Positions 14,705-64,000 of a stretch of 64,000 nt of DNA are shown piece after piece (the first letter of the stretch is position 1; each line of letters opens with the position of its first letter). The notes under the pieces were generated by a model. That model made no database searches. It was not told the origin of the DNA and saw only the letters and a list, made by a program, of their open reading frames with translations. The position numbers and the translations under genes are program-made. The DNA is from Escherichia coli (lineage in GTDB: Bacteria; Pseudomonadota; Gammaproteobacteria; Enterobacterales; Enterobacteriaceae). The DNA lies in assembly GCF_041248615.1 (NCBI RefSeq), contig NZ_CP158426.1. One strand, written 5' to 3'.

Positions 14705-14803
14705 AACCGCGGGCCAGCGTGATGCTGGCCCGGTATTGTGCAAAACAGATCATTCACCAATGGTCCCCCTTCGTTTACACTAGCCACAATTGAATATGGG
14801 TAA

Positions 14804-17453: not shown

Positions 17454-17480
17454 AAAAAATAAGCCCGTGTAAGGGAGATT
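17454..17480. other. 27-bp phage P2 attachment-site core (AAAAAATAAGCCCGTGTAAGGGAGATT) overlapping the cyaR 3' end; apparently unoccupied
   Basis: Exact 27-mer present in the sequence; identification as the P2 att core is from memory of the literature. Confidence 0.5.
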
Positions 17481-17540
17481 ACACAGGCTAAGGAGGTGGT
17501 TCCTGGTACAGCTAGCATTTTATGGGTTATGTTTTTCAGC
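17454..17540 (-). ncRNA. cyaR: CyaR (RyeE) CRP-dependent Hfq-binding sRNA
   Basis: Reverse complement equals GCTGAAAAACATAACCCATAAAATGCTAGCTGTACCAGGAACCACCTCCTTAGCCTGTGTAATCTCCCTTACACGGGCTTATTTTTT, including terminator hairpin and U-tail; possible TCACA CRP half-site upstream on the minus strand. Confidence 0.85.
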
Positions 17541-17624
17541 GAAACGGATGATAACCTTAATAAATGCAGCTGTATGTGATCGGTTTCTAAGAATTTTCCA
17601 TCCGGGAAAAATAATCGAAATTAA

Positions 17625-26258: not shown

Positions 26259-29200
26259 TTACGCCTCCTCTTCATGACGGGCAAAGCGGCTTTTGGTCCA
26301 CAATGCCAGGCGGTCGAATAGCAGATAAATCACTGGCGTGGTAAACAGCGTCAGCACCTGGCTGACAATCAGACCGCCGACCATGCCGATACCTAACGGA
26401 CGACGCAGTTCCGCGCCGACCCCGGTACTCAACATCAGCGGCAGCGCGCCAAGCAGAGCCGCCAGAGTGGTCATCAGGATCGGACGAAAACGCAACAGAC
26501 AAGCCTGGTAGATGGCATCGCGCGGCGACATGCCTTGCTCGCGCTCAGCAGCCAGCGCGAAGTCGATCATCATGATGGCGTTCTTCTTCACGATACCGAT
26601 CAGCAAAATAATGCCGATAATGGCAATCACATCCAGTTCGCTACCGGCAATCATTAACGCCAGCAGTGCGCCGACCCCTGCGGTGGGTAGCGTCGAGAGA
26701 ATGGTGATCGGGTGAATAAAGCTCTCGTACAGAATGCCGAGCACGATATACATCGCCACCACCGCCGCGACAATCAGCCAGACAGTGCTGCCCAACGCCG
26801 ACTGGAAGGCGAGGGTGCTGCCCTGGAACTGCGTGGTGATATCCACCGGCAGATTCAGCGTCTTTTCGGTGTCCATAATCGCCTGCACCGCATCGCCCAG
26901 CGAATAGTTATCCGGCACGTTAAAGGAGATGGTCGTTACCGGGAACTGATCCAGATGGTTGATGGAAAGCGGCGCAAAACGCTGCTCAATTTTGGCAATT
27001 GAGCTTAACGGCACCACTCCACCGTCGCTGCTGGTCAGGCGAATGGTATCCAGCGCCGCGAGGCCTGGGGTATTTTCGGTGTTGTGTTCCAGCACCACGC
27101 GATACTGGTTAGCCTGAGTATAAATAGTGGAAATCAGCCGCTGACCAAACGCGTTGTACAGGGCGTTATCGACATCCGCCATGCTGATCCCCAGACGGCT
27201 GGCGCTGTCGCGATCAACATTGACATACGCCACCAGCCCTTTGTCCTGCCAGTCGCTGGAGACATCAGATAGCTGTGGCAGCTGCTGGAGTTTTTCCATC
27301 AACTGTGGCACCCAGGTACTGAGCGCATCCAGTGACGTGGCCTGCAAGGTAAACTGGTACTGGGTGCGGCTGACCTGAGTATCGATGGTCAGGTCCTGCG
27401 TTGGTTGCAGGAAGAGATCGACGCCCGGCACTTTATCCACCGCCGTTTGCAGACGGGCGATGACTTTTTGCACCCGATCATCACGTTCATCCAACGGTTT
27501 GAGGTTGATCTGCAAACGCGCACTGTTCAGCGACGGGTTAGTGCCATCAACGCCAACAAACGAGGTCAGGCTTTGCACTGCCGGATCCTGCAAAATCACA
27601 TCCGCGACCTGGCGTTGCCGCTGGGCCATATTGGCAAAGGAGCTGGATTGCGGTGCCTGCAAAGTGCCCTGAATAATGCCGTTGTCCTGTACCGGGAAGA
27701 AACCTTTCGGAATGAACACCCACAACAGCACGCTAAGCAGCAGCGTGCTGAGCGCCACGCTTAAGGTCAGCCACGGATGATTCAGCACTTTCGCCAGTCC
27801 ACGACCATAGGCGGTGATTATCCTGTCGAACATTTTCTCCAAGGCTCGGGAGAAGCGGTTCTGTTTACGCAGCGACTCCTGGCTGAGCATCCGCGCGCAC
27901 ATCATCGGTGTCAGGGTCAGCGACACCACTGCTGAGATCAAAATCGCGACGGCCAGAGTAATAGCAAATTCGCGGAACAGTCGCCCGACGATATCGCCCA
28001 TAAACAGCAGTGGGATCAACACCGCAATCAGTGAGAAGGTCAGCGAGATAATGGTAAAGCCGATTTCACCTGCGCCTTTGAGCGCCGCCGCCAGCGGTTT
28101 TTCGCCTTTTTCGATATAGCGCGAAATGTTCTCGATCACCACGATGGCGTCATCGACCACGAATCCGGTGGCGATAGTTAACGCCATCAGCGTCAGGTTA
28201 TTGATCGAAAAATCGAGAAACACCATAACCGCGAAAGTGCCGATTAACGACAGCGGTACAGCAACACCGGGAATGATGGTCGCCGGAATATTGCGCAAAA
28301 ACAGGTAGATAATCATGACTACCAGCGCGATAGCCATCATCAATTCAAACTGGGTATCGTTGACCGATGCGCGGATGTTGGTGGTGCGGTCAGAAAGCAC
28401 TGTCACCTTCACCGATTTCGGCAAACTCTCGGTGAGCTGTGGCAGCATCTGCCGGATGCTGTCGGCGGTGGAGATAATGTTAGCACCGGGCTGGCGCTGA
28501 ACATTCATCACAATGGCCTGTTCTTTGTTCGCCCACGCGCCGAGCCAGCTGTTTTCTGCTCCTTGCTCTACGGTTGCGACATCGCCCAGACGAATCGGCG
28601 CGCCGTTCTGGTAGGCAATAATTAGCTGGCGATACTCTTCGGCGGATTGCATCTGGTCGTTCGCGGAAAGGGTGACCGCGCGGGAAGGGCCGTCGAGGCT
28701 ACCTTTTGCCGAGTTAACGTTAGCGCCGGTAATAGCGGTGCGCACGGTTTCGCTGGTCAGGCCGAGGGCGGCAATCGCCTGAGCGTTAAGTTTGACACGA
28801 ACAGCCGGACGCTGGCCGCTGGAAAGCGTCACCAGGCCGACACCGGAAATCTGCGAGATTTTCTGCGCGACGCGGGTTTCCACCATATCTTCCACTTGCG
28901 TCATTGGCATGGCGGTTGAGGTGACGGCGAGCGTCATGATTGGTGGATCTGCCGGGTTCACTTTGCTGTAAACCGGCGGGTTAGGCAGATCGCTCGGCAA
29001 CAAGTTGGTCGCAGCGTTAATCGCGGCCTGCACTTCCTGCTCGGCGACATCCAGCGGTAATGTTAGCTGGAACTGCAAAGTGATAACTGACGCACCGCCG
29101 GAACTTTGCGACGACATCTGTTTCAGGCCAGACATCTGCCCAAACTGGCGTTCAAGCGGCGCGGTAACGGCAGAGGTCATGACATCCGGGCTCGCACCTG

Positions 29201-30856: not shown

Positions 30857-30999
30857 GAAACGGGAAAGCCCCTCCCGAGGAAGGGGCCTTAAATAAGGAA
30901 AGGGTCATGATGAAGCTACTCATCATCGTGGTGCTCTTAGTGATTAGCTACCCAGCATACTAAGACTACCAGGGCGGGGGAAACCCCGCTCTACCCTCA
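30857..30999 (-). ncRNA. Sib antisense RNA (SibB-like), copy 1
   Basis: Minus-strand promoter TTGACA-17nt-TACTTT (31034..31006) and hairpin GCCCCT/AGGGGC followed by U-run near 30857-30887; transcript fully overlaps the ibs ORF. Ends are approximate. Confidence 0.6.
30907..30963 (+). CDS. Type I toxin Ibs (18 aa, MMKLLIIVVLLVISYPAY), IbsB-like
   Basis: Short hydrophobic ORF with SD AAGGAAAGGG upstream; matches recalled Ibs family; too short for the ORF track. Confidence 0.75.
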   Translation: MMKLLIIVVLLVISYPAY

Positions 31000-31184
31000 C
31001 TCCTGAAAGTATGCCTTCACGATAAGATTGTCAATCTGCAGGCTTTGCAGTCTGCGATCCTGCCAGCAAATATTCTTTGCGAGACGTTACGCAATAATCA
31101 CACTGGAAACTATTTTATCCGCAAGTCAGCGATAGACTGCATACAGGGCGAAAGGAGGTAAGCCGACGATTTCAGCGGGACGCT

Positions 31185-31327
31185 GAAACGGGAAAGCCCC
31201 TCCCGAGGAAGGGGCCTTAAATAAGGAAAGGGTCATGATGAAGATACTCATCATCGTGGTGCTCTTAGTGATTAGCTACCCAGCATACTAAGACTACCAG
31301 GGCGGGGGAAACCCCGCTCTACCCTCA
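31185..31327 (-). ncRNA. Sib antisense RNA, copy 2
   Basis: Same promoter and terminator as copy 1, shifted by 328 bp. Confidence 0.6.
31235..31291 (+). CDS. Type I toxin Ibs (18 aa, MMKILIIVVLLVISYPAY), IbsB-like, second copy
   Basis: Same unit as copy 1 shifted by 328 bp; one substitution (L4I). Confidence 0.75.
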   Translation: MMKILIIVVLLVISYPAY

Positions 31328-31513
31328 CTCCTGAAAGTATGCCTTCACGATAAGATTGTCAATCCGCAGGCTTTGCAGTCTGCGATCCTGCCAGCAAATA
31401 TTCTTTGCGAGTCGTTACGCAATAATCACAGAGGAAACTATTTTGGTCACGCGTTAGCGATAGACTGCATTCAGGGCGAAAGGAGGTAAGCCGACGATTT
31501 CAGCGGGACGCTG

Positions 31514-31662
31514 AAACGGGAAACCCTCTCCCGGAGAAGAGGGCTTTTAATAAGGAAAGGGTTATGATGAAGCACGTCATCATACTGGAGATACTCTTAG
31601 TGATTAGCTTCCAGGCTTACTAAGAACACCAGGGGGAGGGAGAAACCTCTCCCTAACCCTCA
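31514..31662 (-). ncRNA. Sib antisense RNA (SibA-like), copy 3
   Basis: Minus-strand promoter TTGACA-17nt-TAATTT; terminator hairpin CCCTCT/AGAGGG plus U-run. Ends are approximate. Confidence 0.55.
31564..31623 (+). CDS. Type I toxin Ibs (19 aa, MMKHVIILEILLVISFQAY), IbsA-like
   Basis: Diverged third unit; SD AAGGAAAGGG conserved. Confidence 0.7.
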   Translation: MMKHVIILEILLVISFQAY

Positions 31663-31843
31663 CTCCTGAAATTATGTCACTCCGCCCTTAGTGTCAATCG
31701 ACGGCTCTCCGTTCTTGCGAGGCGAATAGCAAAATTTTCTGCGCCGCCGGGCCTAATTCTGAAAGTTTCTTCGTTTGCTCTTATTTCATTATTGCAATCG
31801 GTATGATACCGGGCCTCAATAATTCTCTAAGAAAGGATTTCTT

Positions 31844-37591: not shown

Positions 37592-40500
37592 TCAGTTAAT
37601 CGCGAAATAACTGCTATTCACCAGCAAATCCAGCGGTTGGGCATCGGCAATCACATCGCCATAAATCAGATCGACGCCGATGCCAGAAAGCGTATCCATC
37701 ACCAGGGGTAAAACTACTGGCCCGGCGATGGTCTTCATCCCGAGCCGCTGAGCGTGCCCCTGAATGATCGTAATCAGCATCTCATCCATCAAATTTCCCT
37801 GCACGTTGGCGCATAACTCACCATCAAGTAGCAGGTAATCTGCCATATTCGCTTTCAGCGAGTTGAAGATTTGCAGATCGCGGCCCACCTGACTGAATAC
37901 GATCCGACATCCCGCCAGCCGCAGTTTTTGCACGTTTTCTGCGTGATCTAAAATCGCGTCTGCCGGAATAATCAGATGTAATAACCGTGGTGGTAGAGGG
38001 CTATTTTCCAGCTGCTCAATTAGTTCATTCACCAGCGTGGCGCTACTCAAACCGGCAACGGAAAGCGGGAGGGCGATGCTTATACCTTTACTGGCAACCG
38101 CTTTGGCGGCCTGCTGGAAAAAATCGTGGAATACCCGTCGGTCAAGAGCATGGCTAAGTGCCGGATCGCTGAAGCTACGACGAAATGTTTGTTCATCAAT
38201 AATCTCGCCTTCGCAACTCCAGAGCTTAAGTGAAATCAGCCACAAATTACGCGCTTTCGGGATCCGCGGCGAAGCGACACCGTGGGCGATCATCATCAAC
38301 TGATTCTCTTTAATCATCCGCCACTGTTCATCAAGCGACATCGCCGCCCGTTCGCTATGTGCGGTAGCTTGCTGCGGTTCGTAAATCGTCACCCGGCCCC
38401 GGCCACCATTTTTGGAGGCATAACAGGCGATATCAGCCTGCGACATCACTTCAGCCGCCTGATGATTGTTGTCATCAATCAAGGTAATCCCGGCACTGGC
38501 ACCTACCCGATGTACACGTCCTTCCCAGATAAAGTGATAGTCATTCACGGCGCTGATAATGCGTGTAGCGATAAAACGCGCACTTTCGACATTACAATCT
38601 GGCAGCAGCAGACCAAATTCATCGCCACCGAGTCGCGCCAGCACGTCGCTGGAGCGCAGCATACTCAGCATCAACGACGCCAGTTCGCGCAGTAAAGCAT
38701 CGCCAGCGGCGTGCCCGGCGCTGTCATTCACCGCTTTAAAGCGATCAAGATCGATAAACACCAGTGCATGTCGCTGATGTGTACTGTTTACCGTTTGCAG
38801 CAGGATACGCAGTTGCTTCTCAAAACTGGCGCGATTGGCGAGATGCGTCAGTGCATCATGGGAGGCGCTGTAGCTCAGCTGGCGCAGCATTTTGCGTGAT
38901 TCGGTGACGTCCTGAATCACCAGAACCGAGCCTATATTGCTGCCGTCCAGAGTACTTAACGGCGTAATACTGTAATGCACGTCGTAGCTGCCGCCGCTCC
39001 GGCAGTGCAACACCACATCTTGTTCAATCGCGGAACGTGAGGTGTCGGCACTGTAAATGTTCTCCATTAATGGTCCGTTGTCGCCAAAAGTAATATGCAA
39101 CACCGTCAGGAGCGGAACACCTAATGCTTCTTCCTGCGTCCAGCCGCTCATCTTCTCCGCCACCGGATTCATAAAGGTAATTTTCATCGCCATATCAATA
39201 CAGACCACGGCTTCGCCGATGGAATCCAGCGTAATGTGCAGGCGCTCTTTTTCCTGAAACAATGCCTCGTTAAGCTGTTTCACTTCGGTCATATCCATAT
39301 TAATGCCGAGCAGGCGTTCGACTTCGCCTTCTTTATTCAGTACCCGGTTAGCGAGGGCGCGGATATGGCGAATGCCGTCTTTCACGGTAATGCGAAATTC
39401 CAGTTTAAAGGGAGAGCGTGATTGCAATGAATCGCGAATCACTTTTTCGGCGTGCTGGCGATCTTCCGGCAGCACGCACTCGTACCACACCTGCCAGTTC
39501 GGTTTGATATGCGGAGGAATTTCATACAGCTCGAACATCCGCTTATCCCAGCTAAAAATATTCGGCTTAAGCTCCCACTCCCAGATGCCAATTCCGCCCG
39601 CTTCGTTAGCCAGCGTGATGCGCTCCATCAGTTGCTGGTTCACCTGTTCGGTGCGTTTTAGCTCGTTAATGTCTTCAATCTGAGCGATAAAATAGAGCGG
39701 CGTACCATCGGTGTGGCGCACCAGTGAGACGGCAAGCAACGCCCAGACAACATCGCCATTGCGGTTGTAGTAGCGTTTTTCCATTGAATAGGTGTTTATT
39801 TCACCGCTGATCAGCTTTTCAACCTGTTGCAGATCTTTATTGAGATCCTCCGGCCAGGTCAGTTGCTGAAAGGTGAGTCCGCGCAGTTCTTCCTGACTGT
39901 AACCGAGAAACTGGCAGAGCGCTTTGTTGGATTGCAGCCATTGCCCCTCGGTGCCCACTAATGCCATGCCGATGGCGGAATATTCCATCGCGTTCCGAAA
40001 GCGGGTTTCGCTTTCGGAAATGTGTTTGCGTTCCGCACGAAAGGCATACATCACCATGGTCATGATGTTGGCGGGCAGCAGGATCAGCAAAAACGGTAGC
40101 CACGGCATATGGCTCATCAGGTATGTACGCGGCGTAGCAAGCAGGGAGGGATCCGCGGCCATCATCAGTGACACCATCATCACCGTGGTAAGGAAGATCA
40201 AAAAGGCTTCCATTCGTGGCAGGCGCACGGCGCTCCACATCAACAGCACAATAATGAAAGTAAAAGGCCACGGCAGATACAGCATCGAAAGCCAGCTTAA
40301 CGTCAGTGTGATGGCTAACGTGAGCAGCGACTCAAAAAGCAACCGTGGGTTGCGATGGCGCAGCAGATAGTGTGGTTTAAATAACAATCCCAGCGGCACT
40401 AGTGCCAGTGCGCCGATGGATTCTGAAAGTACCCATATCAAAAATGCCCTGAGAGGATCGTCTCCGGGCGTCAGCAGGGCAACCAGAACACCCCCCAACA

Positions 40501-46467: not shown

Positions 46468-46760
46468 TATGGAGACACAATATTAAATATTGTCAACCTA
46501 AAGAAACTCCTAAAAACCATATTGAATGACACTTAATATAATTCTTAAAAATAGCCAATTGCCGAATTGTTACCTTGCCTGCTATTCCGTTAGCTGTAAC
46601 ACTTCCTCCTGCATTATTGGAGAGCCAATCTTCAATTACCATAATGTCACCTTATATTCGGAAGTTAATTTCCGCAATAACCCTTTCTCATCAACGACTG
46701 TATGTTGAGAGGGTTTTAAAAATTAAGCTAAATCAGTATATTGGTAGCTAAAAAGCCAGG

Positions 46761-46772
46761 GGCGGTAGCGTG
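46761..46772 (+). promoter_or_regulatory. ops element (GGCGGTAGCGTG) within a JUMPstart sequence in the wza leader; RfaH-dependent antitermination signal
   Basis: Exact match to GGCGGTAGNNTG about 180 nt upstream of the wza start. Confidence 0.65.
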
Positions 46773-50725: not shown

Positions 50726-50762
50726 CCCGTAGGCCGGATAAGGCGTTCACGCCGCATCCGGC
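50726..50762. repeat. REP element between wzc and wcaA
   Basis: GCCGGATAAGGCGTTCACGCCGCATCCGGC palindrome. Confidence 0.55.
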
Positions 50763-50796
50763 AAGCAAACCAGCTCATAAGCCGGGAGAACAACCT

Positions 50797-52127: not shown

Positions 52128-53341
52128 ATATTTTGCAATTTAATGTGCGACTGGCGGAAGGCGGGGCGGCAGGTGTGGCGTTAGATCTCCACCAGCGTGC
52201 GCTGCAACAGGGGCTGGCGTCACATTTTGTCTACGGCTACGGCAAAGGCGGCAAAGAGAGCGTCAGCCATCAAAACTATCCGCAGGTCATCAAACATACG
52301 CCGCAGATGACCGCGATGGCGAACATTGCCCTGTTTCGTCTGTTTAATCGCGATCTGTTTGGCAATTTCAATGAGTTATATCGCACCATTACTCGCACAC
52401 CGGGCCCGGTGGTTCTGCATTTTCATGTGCTGCACAGCTACTGGCTAAATCTTAAGAGCGTGGTGCGCTTTTGCGAAAAGGTGAAAAACCACAAACCGGA
52501 TGTCACTCTGGTCTGGACGCTGCACGATCACTGGAGCGTTACCGGACGCTGCGCCTTTACCGACGGTTGCGAAGGCTGGAAAACGGGCTGCCAGAAATGC
52601 CCGACCTTAAATAATTATCCGCCGGTGAAGATTGATCGCGCACACCAGCTGGTGGCGGGCAAACGCCAGTTATTCCGTGAGATGCTGGCGCTGGGCTGTC
52701 AGTTTATTTCCCCCAGCCAGCATGTGGCTGATGCTTTCAATAGTCTGTACGGTCCAGGGCGTTGCCGGATTATCAATAATGGCATTGATATGGCAACCGA
52801 AGCGATTCTGGCGGACTTGCCTCCGGTGCGCGAAACTCAGGGCAAGCCGAAAATCGCGGTGGTAGCGCATGACCTGCGTTACGACGGCAAAACTAACCAG
52901 CAACTGGTACGCGAGATGATGGCGCTGGGCGACAAAATCGAACTGCATACCTTTGGTAAGTTCTCGCCGTTCACCGCTGGCAACGTGGTTAATCACGGCT
53001 TTGAAACTGACAAGCGCAAGTTGATGAGCGCGCTCAATCAGATGGATGCGCTGGTATTCAGTTCTCGCGTCGATAACTACCCGCTAATTTTGTGTGAGGC
53101 GCTATCGATTGGCGTGCCGGTGATTGCCACCCATAGCGACGCGGCGCGGGAAGTGCTGCAAAAATCCGGCGGTAAAACCGTCAGTGAAGAAGACGTGCTG
53201 CAACTGGTCCAGTTAAGCAAACCGGAAATCGCGCAGGCGGTATTTGGTACCACGCTGGCTGAGTTCAGCCAGCGCAGCCGTGCCGCCTACAGTGGACAAC
53301 AGATGCTGGAGGAGTATGTCAACTTCTATCAGAATCTGTAG
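52124..53341 (+). CDS. wcaC: Colanic acid glycosyltransferase (GT4-like)
   Basis: 405 aa; order and recalled sequence. Confidence 0.9.
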   Translation: MNILQFNVRLAEGGAAGVALDLHQRALQQGLASHFVYGYGKGGKESVSHQNYPQVIKHTPQMTAMANIALFRLFNRDLFGNFNELYRTITRTPGPVVLHFHVLHSYWLNLKSVVRFCEKVKNHKPDVTLVWTLHDHWSVTGRCAFTDGCEGWKTGCQKCPTLNNYPPVKIDRAHQLVAGKRQLFREMLALGCQFISPSQHVADAFNSLYGPGRCRIINNGIDMATEAILADLPPVRETQGKPKIAVVAHDLRYDGKTNQQLVREMMALGDKIELHTFGKFSPFTAGNVVNHGFETDKRKLMSALNQMDALVFSSRVDNYPLILCEALSIGVPVIATHSDAAREVLQKSGGKTVSEEDVLQLVQLSKPEIAQAVFGTTLAEFSQRSRAAYSGQQMLEEYVNFYQNL

Positions 53342-59674: not shown

Positions 59675-61111
59675 ATGGCGCAGTCGAAACTCTATCCAGT
59701 TGTGATGGCAGGTGGCTCCGGTAGCCGCTTATGGCCGCTTTCCCGCGTACTTTACCCCAAGCAGTTTTTATGCCTGAAAGGCGATCTCACCATGCTGCAA
59801 ACCACCATCTGCCGCCTGAACGGCGTGGAGTGCGAAAGCCCGGTGGTGATTTGCAATGAGCAGCACCGCTTTATTGTCGCGGAACAGCTGCGTCAACTGA
59901 ACAAACTCACCGAGAATATTATTCTCGAACCGGCAGGGCGTAACACTGCACCTGCCATTGCACTGGCGGCGCTGGCGGCAAAACGTCATAGCCCGGAGAG
60001 CGACCCATTAATGCTGGTGCTGGCGGCGGATCATGTGATTGCCGATGAAGACGCTTTTCGCACCGCCGTGCGTAATGCTATGCCATATGCCGAAGCGGGC
60101 AAGCTGGTGACCTTCGGCATTGTGCCGGATCTACCAGAAACCGGTTATGGCTATATTCGTCGCGGTGAAGTGTCTGCGGGTGAGCAGGATACGGTGGCCT
60201 TTGAAGTGGCGCAGTTTGTCGAAAAACCAAATCTGGAAACCGCTCAGGCCTATGTGGCAAGCGGCGAATATTACTGGAACAGCGGTATGTTCCTGTTCCG
60301 CGCCGGACGCTATCTCGAAGAACTGAAAAAATATCGCCCGGATATTCTCGACGCCTGTGAAAAAGCGATGAGCGCCGTCGATCCGGATCTCGATTTTATT
60401 CGCGTGGATGAAGAAGCGTTTCTGGCCTGCCCGGAAGAGTCGGTGGATTACGCGGTCATGGAACGTACGGCAGATGCCGTTGTGGTGCCGATGGATGCGG
60501 GCTGGAGCGATGTCGGTTCCTGGTCTTCATTATGGGAGATCAGCGCCCACACCGCCGAGGGCAACGTTTGCCACGGCGATGTGATTAATCACAAAACTGA
60601 AAACAGCTATGTGTATGCCGAATCTGGCCTGGTCACCACCGTCGGGGTGAAAGATTTGGTGGTAGTGCAGACCAAAGATGCGGTGCTGATTGCCGACCGT
60701 AACGCGGTGCAGGATGTGAAAAAAGTGGTCGAGCAGATCAAAGCCGATGGTCGCCATGAGCATCGGGTGCATCGCGAAGTGTATCGCCCGTGGGGCAAAT
60801 ATGACTCTATCGACGCGGGCGACCGCTACCAGGTGAAACGCATCACCGTGAAACCGGGCGAAGGTTTGTCGGTACAGATGCATCATCACCGCGCGGAACA
60901 CTGGGTGGTTGTCGCGGGAACGGCAAAAGTCACTATCGACGGTGATATCAAACTGCTTGGTGAAAACGAGTCCATTTATATTCCGCTGGGGGCGACGCAT
61001 TGCCTGGAAAACCCGGGGAAAATTCCGCTCGATTTAATTGAAGTGCGCTCCGGCTCTTATCTCGAAGAGGATGATGTGGTGCGCTTCGCGGATCGCTACG
61101 GACGGGTGTAG
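59675..61111 (+). CDS. cpsB: Mannose-1-phosphate guanylyltransferase
   Basis: 478 aa [24 protein letters not shown].... Confidence 0.95.
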
Positions 61112-61212
61112 CAGTTGAATAATCAACCGGATTAATTCTCCGGTAAATAACGACAAAAACAAAATTGGCCGTTTCGGTCAGGGCCAACTATTGCCTGAAA
61201 AAGGGTAACGAT

Positions 61213-62583
61213 ATGAAAAAATTAACCTGCTTTAAAGCCTATGATATTCGCGGGAAATTAGGCGAAGAACTGAATGAAGATATCGCCTGGCGCATTGGTC
61301 GCGCCTATGGCGAATTTCTCAAACCGAAAACCATTGTGTTAGGTGGTGATGCCCGCCTCACCAGCGAAACCTTAAAACTGGCGCTGGCGAAAGGTTTACA
61401 GGATGCGGGCGTCGATGTGCTGGATATCGGCATGTCCGGCACCGAAGAGATCTATTTCGCCACGTTCCATCTCGGCGTGGATGGCGGCATCGAAGTTACC
61501 GCCAGCCATAACCCGATGGATTACAACGGCATGAAACTGGTGCGCGAAGGGGCTCACCCGATCAGCGGTGATACCGGACTGCGCGATGTCCAGCGTCTGG
61601 CAGAAGCCAACGACTTCCCTCCCGTTGATGAAACCAAACGCGGTCGCTATCAGCAAATCAATCTGCGTGACGCTTACGTTGATCACCTGTTCGGTTATAT
61701 CAACGTCAAAAACCTCACGTCGCTCAAGCTGGTGATCAACTCCGGGAACGGCGCGGCGGGTCCGGTGGTGGACGCCATTGAAGCCCGCTTTAAAGCCCTC
61801 GGCGCACCGGTGGAATTAATCAAAGTACACAACACGCCGGACGGCAATTTCCCCAACGGTATTCCTAACCCGCTACTGCCGGAATGCCGCGACGACACCC
61901 GCAATGCGGTCATCAAACACGGCGCGGATATGGGCATTGCCTTTGATGGCGATTTTGACCGCTGTTTCCTGTTTGACGAAAAAGGGCAGTTTATCGAGGG
62001 CTACTACATTGTCGGCCTGCTGGCAGAAGCGTTCCTCGAAAAAAATCCCGGCGCGAAGATCATCCACGATCCACGTCTCTCCTGGAACACCGTTGATGTG
62101 GTGACTGCCGCAGGCGGCACCCCGGTAATGTCGAAAACCGGACACGCCTTTATTAAAGAACGGATGCGCAAGGAAGACGCCATCTACGGTGGCGAAATGA
62201 GCGCCCACCATTACTTCCGTGATTTTGCCTACTGCGACAGCGGCATGATCCCGTGGCTGCTGGTCGCCGAACTGGTGTGCCTGAAAGGGAAAACGCTGGG
62301 CGAACTGGTGCGCGACCGGATGGCAGCGTTTCCGGCAAGCGGTGAGATCAACAGCAAACTGGCGCAACCCGTTGAGGCAATTAATCGCGTCGAACAGCAT
62401 TTTAGCCGTGAGGCGCTGGCGGTGGATCGCACCGATGGCATCAGTATGACCTTTGCCGACTGGCGCTTTAACCTGCGCTCCTCCAACACCGAACCGGTGG
62501 TGCGGTTGAATGTGGAATCACGCGGTGATGTGCCGCTGATGGAAGCGCGAACGCGAACTCTGCTGACGTTGCTGAACGAGTAA
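61213..62583 (+). CDS. cpsG: Phosphomannomutase
   Basis: ORF 61165..62583 trimmed to [14 protein letters not shown] (456 aa); active-site TASHNP motif. Confidence 0.9.
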
Positions 62584-62637
62584 TGTCGGATCTTCCCTTA
62601 CCCCATTGCGGGTAAGGGGCTAATAACAGGAACAACG

Positions 62638-64000
62638 ATGACAAATCTAAAAAAGCGCGAGCGAGCGAAAACCAATGCATCGTTAATCTCTATGGTGCAA
62701 CGCTTTTCAGATATCACCATCATGTTTGCCGGACTATGGCTGGTTTGCGAAGTCAGCGGACTGTCATTCCTCTACATGCACCTGTTGGTGGCGCTGATTA
62801 CGCTGGTGGTGTTCCAGATGCTGGGCGGCATCACCGATTTTTATCGCTCATGGCGCGGTGTTCGGGCAGCGACAGAATTTGCCCTGTTGCTACAAAACTG
62901 GACGTTAAGCGTGATTTTCAGCGCCGGACTGGTGGCGTTTAACAATGATTTCGACACGCAACTGAAAATCTGGCTGGCGTGGTATGGGCTGACCAGCATC
63001 GGACTGGTGGTTTGCCGTTCATGTATTCGCATTGGGGCGGGCTGGCTGCGTAATCATGGCTATAACAAGCGCATGGTCGCGGTGGCGGGGGATTTAGCCG
63101 CCGGACAAATGCTGATGGAGAGCTTCCGTAATCAGCCGTGGTTAGGGTTTGAAGTGGTGGGCGTTTACCACGACCCGAAACCGGGTGGCGTTTCTAACGA
63201 CTGGGCGGGCAATCTGCAACAGCTGGTCGAGGATGCGAAAGCGGGCAAGATTCATAACGTCTATATCGCGATGCAAATGTGCGACGGCGCGCGAGTGAAA
63301 AAACTGGTCCATCAATTGGCGGACACCACCTGTTCGGTGCTGCTGATCCCCGATGTCTTTACCTTCAACATTCTCCATTCCCGTATCGAAGAGATGAACG
63401 GCGTACCGGTGGTGCCGCTTTACGATACGCCGCTTTCCGGGGTTAACCGCCTGATAAAACGTGCGGAAGACATTGTGCTGGCGACGCTTATCCTGCTGCT
63501 GATCTCCCCGGTGCTGTGCTGTATTGCGCTGGCGGTAAAACTCAGTTCACCAGGACCGGTTATTTTCCGCCAGACTCGCTACGGCATGGATGGCAAGCCG
63601 ATCAAAGTGTGGAAGTTCCGTTCGATGAAAGTGATGGAGAACGACAAAGTGGTAACTCAGGCGACGCAGAACGATCCGCGCGTCACCAAAGTGGGGAACT
63701 TTCTGCGCCGCACCTCGCTGGATGAATTGCCGCAGTTTATCAATGTGCTGACCGGGGGGATGTCGATTGTCGGTCCACGTCCACACGCGGTGGCGCATAA
63801 CGAACAGTATCGCCAGCTCATTGAAGGCTACATGCTGCGCCATAAGGTGAAACCGGGCATTACCGGCTGGGCGCAGATTAATGGCTGGCGTGGCGAAACC
63901 GACACGCTGGAGAAAATGGAAAAACGCGTCGAGTTCGACCTTGAGTACATCCGCGAATGGAGCGTCTGGTTCGATATCAAAATCGTTTTCCTGACGGTGT
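62638..64000 (+). CDS. wcaJ: UDP-glucose:undecaprenyl-phosphate glucose-1-phosphate transferase, 3'-truncated by window end
   Basis: Manual translation from the ATG at 62638: MTNLKKRERAKTNASLISMVQRFSDITIMFAGLWLV...; open to the window edge, so absent from the ORF track. The track's 62736..62942 ORF is in a different frame. Confidence 0.85.
   Translation, partial: MTNLKKRERAKTNASLISMVQRFSDITIMFAGLWLVCEVSGLSFLYMHLLVALITLVVFQMLGGITDFYRSWRGVRAATEFALLLQNWTLSVIFSAGLVAFNNDFDTQLKIWLAWYGLTSIGLVVCRSCIRIGAGWLRNHGYNKRMVAVAGDLAAGQMLMESFRNQPWLGFEVVGVYHDPKPGGVSNDWAGNLQQLVEDAKAGKIHNVYIAMQMCDGARVKKLVHQLADTTCSVLLIPDVFTFNILHSRIEEMNGVPVVPLYDTPLSGVNRLIKRAEDIVLATLILLLISPVLCCIALAVKLSSPGPVIFRQTRYGMDGKPIKVWKFRSMKVMENDKVVTQATQNDPRVTKVGNFLRRTSLDELPQFINVLTGGMSIVGPRPHAVAHNEQYRQLIEGYMLRHKVKPGITGWAQINGWRGETDTLEKMEKRVEFDLEYIREWSVWFDIKIVFLTV

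Follow-up and report, generated by a model that had tools for sequence, protein, structure and literature searches.

A conserved stem-loop at the cpsG-wcaJ junction of the colanic acid operon and its relationship to BoxC repeats

Introduction

Enterobacteria make colanic acid as a stress capsule under Rcs control. How a single promoter controls expression along its 20-gene operon is only partly known, and because WcaJ commits scarce undecaprenyl-phosphate, fitness depends on how the upstream and downstream genes are balanced. Most of the wca genes abut or overlap, while the three sizeable spacers of the operon all hold palindromic or structured elements. One of these spacers, between cpsG and wcaJ, contains a small, ordinary-looking stem-loop, here called H2. 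Intercistronic palindromic stem-loops related to a named repeat are a well-known kind of element. A literature search for the cpsG-wcaJ spacer found no paper that mentions it.

The DNA analyzed, hereafter the window, is a stretch of 64,000 nt from Escherichia coli (contig NZ_CP158426.1, assembly GCF_041248615.1). The region 62380-62840 shares 100% identity with E. coli CFSAN018748 and 98% with K-12, where the junction corresponds to roughly 2,121,500-2,121,650 of NC_000913.3, minus strand. The identities of cpsG and wcaJ were taken from the RefSeq annotation of identical or near-identical E. coli records.

Structure of the cpsG-wcaJ spacer

The cpsG stop codon TAA occupies positions 62581-62583 and the wcaJ ATG positions 62638-62640, leaving a spacer of 54 nt (62584-62637). 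The original prediction placed a perfect 9-bp hairpin in this spacer, and the hairpin can be read there directly from the sequence. Its stem is lengthened to 10 bp by a U62594:G62619 pair, and the complete H2 helix, which includes 6 G-C pairs, has a predicted folding energy of -17.1 kcal/mol (RNAfold). The elements in and around the spacer are as follows.

62563-62589, + strand: hairpin H1, 11 bp, CUGACGUUGCU / loop GAACG / AGUAAUGUCGG, from fold prediction and alignment
62590-62593, + strand: linker AUCU between H1 and H2, 4 nt, evolving at a near-neutral rate
62594-62603, + strand: C-rich 5' arm of H2, U + CCCUUACCC; in alignment A2, pairs 47-68 and 50-63 change on both sides
62595-62603, + strand: core 5' arm of H2, CCCTTACCC, from the sequence
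62604-62609, + strand: loop of H2, CAUUGC (CATTGC in the DNA), 6 nt, variable in E. coli and between genera
62610-62618, + strand: core 3' arm of H2, GGGTAAGGG, from the sequence
62610-62619, + strand: G-rich 3' arm of H2, GGGUAAGGG + G, from fold and alignment
62620-62637, + strand: A-rich, single-stranded tail without a U-run, carrying the wcaJ Shine-Dalgarno sequence AGGA at 62628-62631, from the sequence
62634-62684, + strand: tentative helix H3, AACGAUG (62634-62640, including the wcaJ start codon) with CAUCGUU (62678-62684, codons 14-16, GCA TCG TTA)
62629-62631 with 62687-62689: outer pairs of H3

H2 is not the only hairpin at the junction. The 5' arm of H1 consists of the last cpsG codons, and its 3' arm includes the UAA stop and the first 6 bases of the spacer. 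H1 forms on the sense strand only and vanishes when the antisense strand is folded. The original prediction was right about the existence and coordinates of H2 and about its lack of a U-tract, but it missed the companion hairpin enclosing the cpsG stop, the occurrence of BoxC/PIT/TMECO elements at the same site, and the pattern of three palindrome-filled spacers in the operon.

For the 55-nt spacer, z was -1.6 and 15 of 200 shuffled sequences were equally stable, and for the 30-nt H2 hairpin alone z was -3.4. Folded jointly on the sense strand, H1 and H2 reach -31.6 kcal/mol (z = -5.0), a stability equaled by none of 200 shuffles. Perfect hairpins of at least 9 bp number 9 in the window, compared with 2.2 expected from shuffles. 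Other perfect, GC-rich and short-looped hairpins of this length occur at 14710-14732, 27726-27750, 39994-40018 and 53253-53274, one example being CGGGCCAGC-GTGAT-GCTGGCCCG. Taken alone, the bare H2 hairpin is statistically unremarkable, and it is the genome comparison that changes this. Given its cross-species conservation and compensatory changes, H2 is no chance match.

A covariance-model search of Rfam found nothing overlapping 62560-62640 either at the gathering threshold or at E values up to 10, and membership of H2 in a known RNA family was rejected. A coding explanation was also rejected. The candidates were two minus-strand ORFs (62468-62680 and 62598-62723) and a plus-strand mini-ORF of 10 codons, which starts at an ATG formed with the last base of the cpsG stop (62583), in a UAAUG stop-start overlap, and runs through H2 to a TAA at 62615 in the 3' arm. 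The mini-ORF is present in E. coli and E. whittamii but absent from Salmonella and C. amalonaticus, where the ATG is missing, and it is frameshifted by 1-nt loop indels within E. coli; it was on these indels and missing start codons that coding was dismissed. Translational coupling, one of the roles originally suggested for the hairpin, draws weak support from this non-conserved overlap.

Downstream of H2, the wcaJ start codon is paired in the minimum free energy fold of 72 of 77 loci. Codon 15 of wcaJ is TCG in all 77 despite its fourfold degeneracy, and the synonymous positions of codons 14 and 16 hardly vary. The tentative H3 helix may throttle WcaJ translation.

Variation of the spacer between genera and within E. 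coli

The comparison drew on 80 wcaJ loci, each from a different species, in about 40 genera of enterobacteria, and 76 cpsG-wcaJ spacers were analyzed. The spacers range from 39 to 357 nt in length, and 75 of the 76 fold to -14 kcal/mol or below, centered on a hairpin whose 5' arm is rich in C and whose 3' arm is rich in G. The sole loss of the hairpin is in Citrobacter sp. MGH106. Conservation across the Enterobacteriaceae, which had been put forward as a check on the hairpin, is therefore borne out for the structure, and it is accompanied by compensatory substitutions. This result favors a role at the RNA level of the general kind suggested originally, such as stability, processing or insulation. 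In 51 of the 76 spacers the sense strand is the more stable of the two.

The placement of the structure is also shared. Across genera, the median distance from the cpsG stop to the first strong helix is 10 nt, which is also the distance found in E. coli. Of 69 spacers, 55 have this helix no more than 15 nt from the stop, and in the other 14 it lies farther away. A median of 21 nt separates the end of the last strong helix from the wcaJ ATG, and this helix is always clear of the conserved AGGA block. The loop varies from 3 to 7 nt and the arm sequences change between genera.

Three forms of the hairpin can be distinguished. Escherichia, Salmonella and Citrobacter possess a simple hairpin homologous to H2, with an arm of CCCTTACCC, CCCCTTACC, CCTTTGCCC or CCTTCGCCC. 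A simple hairpin of the CCCCTCTCCC/GGGGAGAGGG type is found in Leclercia, Lelliottia, Kosakonia and others. Enterobacter, Kluyvera, Buttiauxella and many other genera carry a nested or doubled composite, CCCCTCACCC-TAA-CCCTCTCCCC-nnn-GGGGAGAGGG-TTA-GGGTGAGGGG, within spacers as long as 357 nt, and the long BoxC alleles of these other genera reach a duplex of 35-39 bp.

Some spacers have more elaborate arrangements. In the longest, of 357 nt (locus L053), a unit of about 65 nt is repeated three times in tandem between BoxC arms, and another of 247 nt (L027) contains repeated GGGAGATCGCCCGGAGCGG...CACCCTCGCCCCTTTGGGG units. In Citrobacter youngae CCUG 30791 and Citrobacter sp. Cu233 (L011 and L013, about 1750-2000), cpsG is reduced to a short remnant ORF while H1 and H2 are retained before wcaJ.

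Complete genomes of E. coli are dimorphic at this spacer. The short hairpin allele is present in 4,129 genomes and a BoxC-bearing allele of 127-135 nt in 509 (about 11%), and together the two account for essentially all of the approximately 4,640 E. coli genomes with the locus. The long allele (positions 505-639 of locus L001 and the spacer of L003) contains a degenerate inverted pair of BoxC/TMECO elements. Since a few flanking bases differ as well, it is an allelic replacement and not a simple insertion into the loop. Otherwise, variation in E. coli is made up of loop substitutions and 1-nt loop indels, which give the loops CATTGC, CACTGC, CACTTGC, CCACTGC, TACTGC and CTCTGC, together with one C-to-T change in the stem that results in a U.G pair on the sense strand. 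The plasticity of the spacer, including its length range, the polymorphism within E. coli and the single loss, fits a tolerated repeat as well as it fits a functional one.

Evidence for selection on the structure

The covariation sample consisted of 16 aligned sequences from Escherichia, Salmonella and Citrobacter, 15 of them distinct and all related, in which helices H1 and H2 were scored. Of the cells in these two helices, 96.8% form standard pairs (96.4% for H1 alone). Both sides change in three pairs, representing 17 cells. In H2 these are A-U to G-C and C-G to U-A switches, and in H1 an A-U to G-C switch that combines a Thr/Ala codon with a non-coding base. Five further pairs of H1 change on one side by way of G.U, and U.G intermediates on the sense strand are seen in the alignment. 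The covariation score over these 15 distinct but related sequences is 0.236, compared with 0.167 in shuffles, none of which reached the observed value in 500 trials, and with 0.035-0.112 in slid controls.

Rates of change point in the same direction. Within Escherichia, Salmonella and Citrobacter, divergence from E. coli is 0.14 in the H2 stems, 0.56 in the H2 loop, 0.46 in the H1-H2 linker, 0.37 in the tail and 0.065 in the ribosome-binding block, and fourfold-degenerate sites of the flanking genes diverge by 0.34-0.57. C. amalonaticus and C. sedlakii each have 0 of 20 stem differences at a fourfold divergence of about 0.4. Within this set of 15 related sequences, the general properties of conserved cis-acting RNAs are thus present, with pairing retained through compensatory or wobble changes and stems evolving more slowly than loops. 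Over all spacers, G.U pairs outnumber A.C mismatches by 208 to 155, a modest excess in a count too noisy to be decisive, since helices formed by the low-complexity arms are easily misregistered. Part of the excess could stem from C-to-T mutation with a strand bias. For this question the simple hairpins and H1 alone were taken into account, in a qualitative way.

Gene conversion from sister repeats cannot account for the conservation, since the short hairpin is single-copy and has no donor copies. A 34-nt query of the short hairpin was found in 4,128 genomes, at a median of 1 place each and at most 2. Based on the comparative evidence, H2 is probably a sense-strand RNA stem-loop kept by purifying selection.

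Relationship to BoxC elements

The composite found in other genera is known in the literature as BoxC, which is the same as the PIT element (potential intrastrand triplex) and the TMECO triplex motif (Holder et al., 2015, PMC4666352). The earlier literature on BoxC/PIT includes Bergler (1992) and Hoyne and Maher (2000, 2002). The TMECO pattern is CCCTCNCCC N3-6 GGGNGAGGG N3 GGGNGAGGG, and the MG1655 genome has 23 copies, all intergenic (PMC4666352). According to the same source, TMECO loci show raised local variability, are unstable and are absent from Salmonella, palindromic pairs often lose sequence by deletion while a hairpin remains, and no function has been demonstrated for BoxC elements. 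Holder et al. further state, citing Hoyne and Maher, that BoxC/PIT elements have no promoter or terminator activity. The cpsG-wcaJ locus is not listed by gene name in their supplements.

The published TMECO pattern occurs exactly in 16 of the 76 spacers, and in 24 of the 76 with up to two mismatches. H2 itself departs from it in each of its blocks. In place of the C block CCCTCNCCC, the window has the arm CCCTTACCC, which mismatches at position 5, and an exact search finds no TMECO in the window spacer. The 6-nt loop falls within the 3-6 nt allowed, but the following GGGTAAGGG differs from the G block GGGNGAGGG in having A for G at position 5, which compensates for the change in the C block. 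Finally, the 3' arm is followed by GCTAATAACAGG and not by a 3-nt loop and a second G block to serve as the third triplex strand, there is no extra C block upstream, and no further GGGTRAGGG was found in the window. With the second G block missing, the short allele cannot form a triplex.

The resemblance is nevertheless considerable. H2 and BoxC share the type of arm (CCCTNNCCC with GGGNNAGGG), a loop of 3-6 nt and a strictly intergenic location, and true TMECO copies occupy this very spacer in other genera and in the 509 E. coli genomes with the long allele. In contrast, position 5 of the H2 arms is T and A rather than C and G. H2 is also single-copy, whereas BoxC has about 23-36 copies per genome, and a 49-mer of the composite is found at a median of 34 places per E. 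coli genome. While TMECO loci are reported to be unstable and absent from Salmonella, H2 has been kept at the orthologous site across genera. A status as dispersed repeat, which does apply to the composite BoxC, was accordingly rejected for H2. Because position 5 differs, the third block is missing and the element is not dispersed, H2 is a relative of the BoxC-occupied site and not a member of BoxC. It is the short, single-copy, locus-fixed relative of the BoxC/PIT/TMECO repeat that fills the same spacer in most other Enterobacteriaceae and in about 11% of E. coli.

Possible functions of the hairpin

The preferred reading is that H2 is a maintained stem-loop of the sense-strand cps mRNA, a short relative of the BoxC-occupied site, that would act in the manner of a REP as a decay barrier and insulator. 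The statement as a whole is given a probability of about 0.45. Confidence in the parts concerning identity and selection is higher, and for the specific mechanism, a barrier to 3'-to-5' decay combined with insulation, the chances are put at about one in three. What favors a barrier and insulator is that stability and a position between stop and ribosome-binding site are conserved together with an indifference to sequence and size, as expected of a REP-like intercistronic barrier.

Between them, H1 and H2 fill the spacer and leave the wcaJ ribosome-binding site free. According to this mechanism, a stable RNA structure of any sequence would block 3'-to-5' exonucleolytic decay, and the upstream part of the 20-gene transcript, from wza to cpsG, would outlive the part from wcaJ to wcaM. 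In addition, the untranslated C-rich spacer would be kept folded, insulating the two cistrons from one another. The expected outcome would be that the initiating transferase WcaJ is expressed at a lower level than the sugar-nucleotide genes. A broader proposal holds that a BoxC-type hairpin has been kept at this junction by selection since before the split of Escherichia, Salmonella and Citrobacter, in its BoxC form across the family, and that together with H1 and H3 it sets the level of WcaJ relative to the sugar-nucleotide enzymes. This proposal is distinctly doubtful.

The sequence was also inspected for signals of RNA processing. RNase III requires about 20 bp or more of near-continuous duplex, while H2 has 10 bp and H1 11 bp, with 4 nt between them. 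No convincing recognition motif for CsrA, RNase E or RNase III was recognized by reading the sequence, and no canonical RNase E motif lies beside H2. The cps operon is poorly expressed in standard cultures. The supplements of Adams et al. (2021) that were searched have no 3'-end entries for any cps gene.

An alternative to a maintained function is that H2 is a neutral relic, a BoxC palindrome that collapsed by internal deletion, is harmless within the operon and has its pairing preserved by palindrome dynamics at the DNA level, such as template switching. The presence of bona fide BoxC/TMECO elements in the same spacer of many genera and in the 509 E. coli genomes agrees with such an origin, as does the similarity of the arms (CCCTtACCC in H2 and CCCTCACCC in BoxC). 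So do the observations of Holder et al. that deletions in TMECO pairs often leave a hairpin and that no function was found, and likewise the range of spacer lengths (39-357 nt) and the loss of the hairpin in one Citrobacter. However, stems whose rate of change is 3-4 times lower than that of the loop, linker and fourfold sites, and that show no difference from two Citrobacter species, are difficult to reconcile with neutrality, and a single-copy hairpin has no conversion donors. Empty alleles are almost nil (1 of the 76 species spacers, with the short and long alleles making up nearly all of the E. coli genomes), and the neighboring hairpin H1 shows covariation and is formed by the sense RNA only. 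Neutrality is therefore considered unlikely.

A second alternative would give the hairpin a single task, which is to hide a C-tract from Rho. The C-rich arm in an untranslated spacer would otherwise load Rho and cause polarity on wcaJ-wcaM, and pairing with the G-rich arm would mask it. The 5' arm of H2 and its flank, CUUCCCUUACCCC, are C-rich and G-poor. The spacer is moreover one of few untranslated gaps in an operon of about 20 kb with a JUMPstart antitermination signal, and hairpins of any size are tolerated provided that the arms pair. Nevertheless, a typical Rho loading region is longer than the 54-nt gap, and H1 is left unexplained, making Rho shielding improbable as the sole role.

It is less probable again that the structure acts through its proximity to the stop codon, modulating CpsG termination or wcaJ coupling in the way that REPs near stop codons do through ribosome stalling and tmRNA tagging, or, in a variant, through the UAAUG mini-ORF (62583-62615). 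The short distance between stop and helix in most spacers (at most 15 nt in 55 of 69; 10 nt in E. coli) and the enclosure of the cpsG stop by H1 are in line with this, and regulation of the termination of translation by REPs has been reported (Liang et al., 2015, as cited in PMC6815119 and PMC8450116). Yet with UAA in the A site, H2 would lie just outside the mRNA channel of the ribosome, judging by known footprints, the distance from stop to helix exceeds 15 nt in 14 of 69 spacers, and the mini-ORF is subject to the losses and frameshifts described above.

A role for H2 as DNA, whether as a protein operator, as a cruciform or triplex, or as a hotspot of recombination bordering the cpsB-cpsG module, is very unlikely. 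In its favor, H2 is perfectly palindromic as DNA, local variability is raised at TMECO loci and the spacer is polymorphic in E. coli. A fixed dimeric operator, however, is hard to envisage because the loop varies from 3 to 7 nt and the arms change between genera. The lack of a third block precludes a triplex in the short allele, 9 bp are too few for cruciform extrusion, and the G.U-tolerant evolution and sense-only H1 point to RNA.

Least credible of all, and rejected in agreement with the original prediction, is an intrinsic terminator or attenuator ending the wza-cpsG transcript, for although a GC-rich stem-loop does lie downstream of a stop codon and operons of this family are reported to have a stem-loop attenuator after wzc, the stem is followed directly by GCTAATAACAGG, without a T-run, in a tail (GCUAAUAACAGG) that has no U-rich tract, a terminator scan of 61000-64000 did not call this site, the tails are A-rich in all genera, BoxC/PIT elements are described as lacking terminator activity, and the essential downstream genes wcaJ-wcaM have no nearby promoter-like site, a scan of 61000-64000 having found no sigma-70-like promoter for wcaJ.

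If the broader proposal, in which the hairpin with H1 and H3 sets the level of WcaJ, were true, it would be the first function assigned to a BoxC/PIT member or derivative, a class that has had none since 1992, and would imply that copies of BoxC have been recruited as ready-made intercistronic RNA hairpins. The comparison shows that the junction before wcaJ carries structures under purifying selection at the place where other genera have BoxC repeats. It is mildly surprising to find a BoxC-type hairpin throughout the family at one orthologous junction, with selection on a single-copy derivative and a companion hairpin over the stop codon. The locus therefore offers a defined and mutable site at which to ask whether BoxC/PIT elements do anything, and what, and how long polysaccharide operons grade their expression.

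Comparison with other structured elements of the operon

Besides the cpsG-wcaJ junction, structured elements were located in the following parts of the operon.

46734-46772, + strand: JUMPstart element upstream of wza, from an Rfam search
50729-50763: canonical REP, GTAGGCCGGATAAGGCGTTCACGCCGCATCCGGCA, in the wzc-wcaA spacer (92 nt)
61159-61208: algC RNA motif (Rfam RF02929, 78 bits), a conserved hairpin + ACTGTTGCCTGAAAAAGGG, in the cpsB-cpsG spacer

A stem-loop attenuator has been described after wzc in group 1 capsule and colanic acid clusters (Rahn and Whitfield, 2003, as cited in PMC2516531 and PMC3438125), and the REP in the wzc-wcaA spacer is positioned at the site of this reported attenuator (PMC2516531). 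In the K30 and Klebsiella clusters, the reported stem-loop is located directly upstream of wbaP, the gene for the initiating phosphoglycosyl transferase. H2 belongs to the same operon family and lies upstream of wcaJ much as the K30 and Klebsiella stem-loop lies upstream of wbaP. In contrast, it differs from the post-wzc attenuator in both junction and sequence, and attenuation has been demonstrated for the wzc-proximal site only.

Intercistronic REP/BIME elements, such as those of malE-malF and the REP after wzc, resemble H2 in being stable, GC-rich stem-loops within an operon, just after a stop codon and without a U-tract. REPs are described as stabilizing upstream mRNA and as able to down-regulate translation of the upstream gene (summarized in PMC8450116; also PMC6815119). 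Both REP/BIME elements and H2 would be expected to act through structure rather than sequence, whether in mRNA stabilization, attenuation or upstream translation. Despite these similarities, H2 is not a REP. It lacks the REP consensus, does not resemble the REP at 50729-50763, and is single-copy rather than dispersed in many copies, without mobility of the RAYT type.

The algC motif is, like H1 and H2, a conserved structured element, and it is found on the other side of cpsG. However, its sequence and structure are unrelated to theirs, and it is represented in Rfam, whereas H1 and H2 match no Rfam family. The motif also occurs in Salmonella, Enterobacter and other loci of the comparison set, and it is a known candidate for a cis-regulatory RNA upstream of phosphomannomutase genes.

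The cpsB-cpsG spacer often hosts clusters of REP/BIME elements in other strains and genera (for example 282 nt in locus L004 and 156 nt in L003), and BoxC is present there in 6 of 70 cases. The cpsG-wcaJ spacer hosts BoxC and rarely REP, the reverse of the cpsB-cpsG spacer, such that each spacer keeps its own type of palindrome. Other known RNAs in the window are three tandem SIB antitoxin RNAs (30892-31697, - strand), CyaR (17457-17542, - strand) and a TPP riboswitch (1187-1283, + strand).
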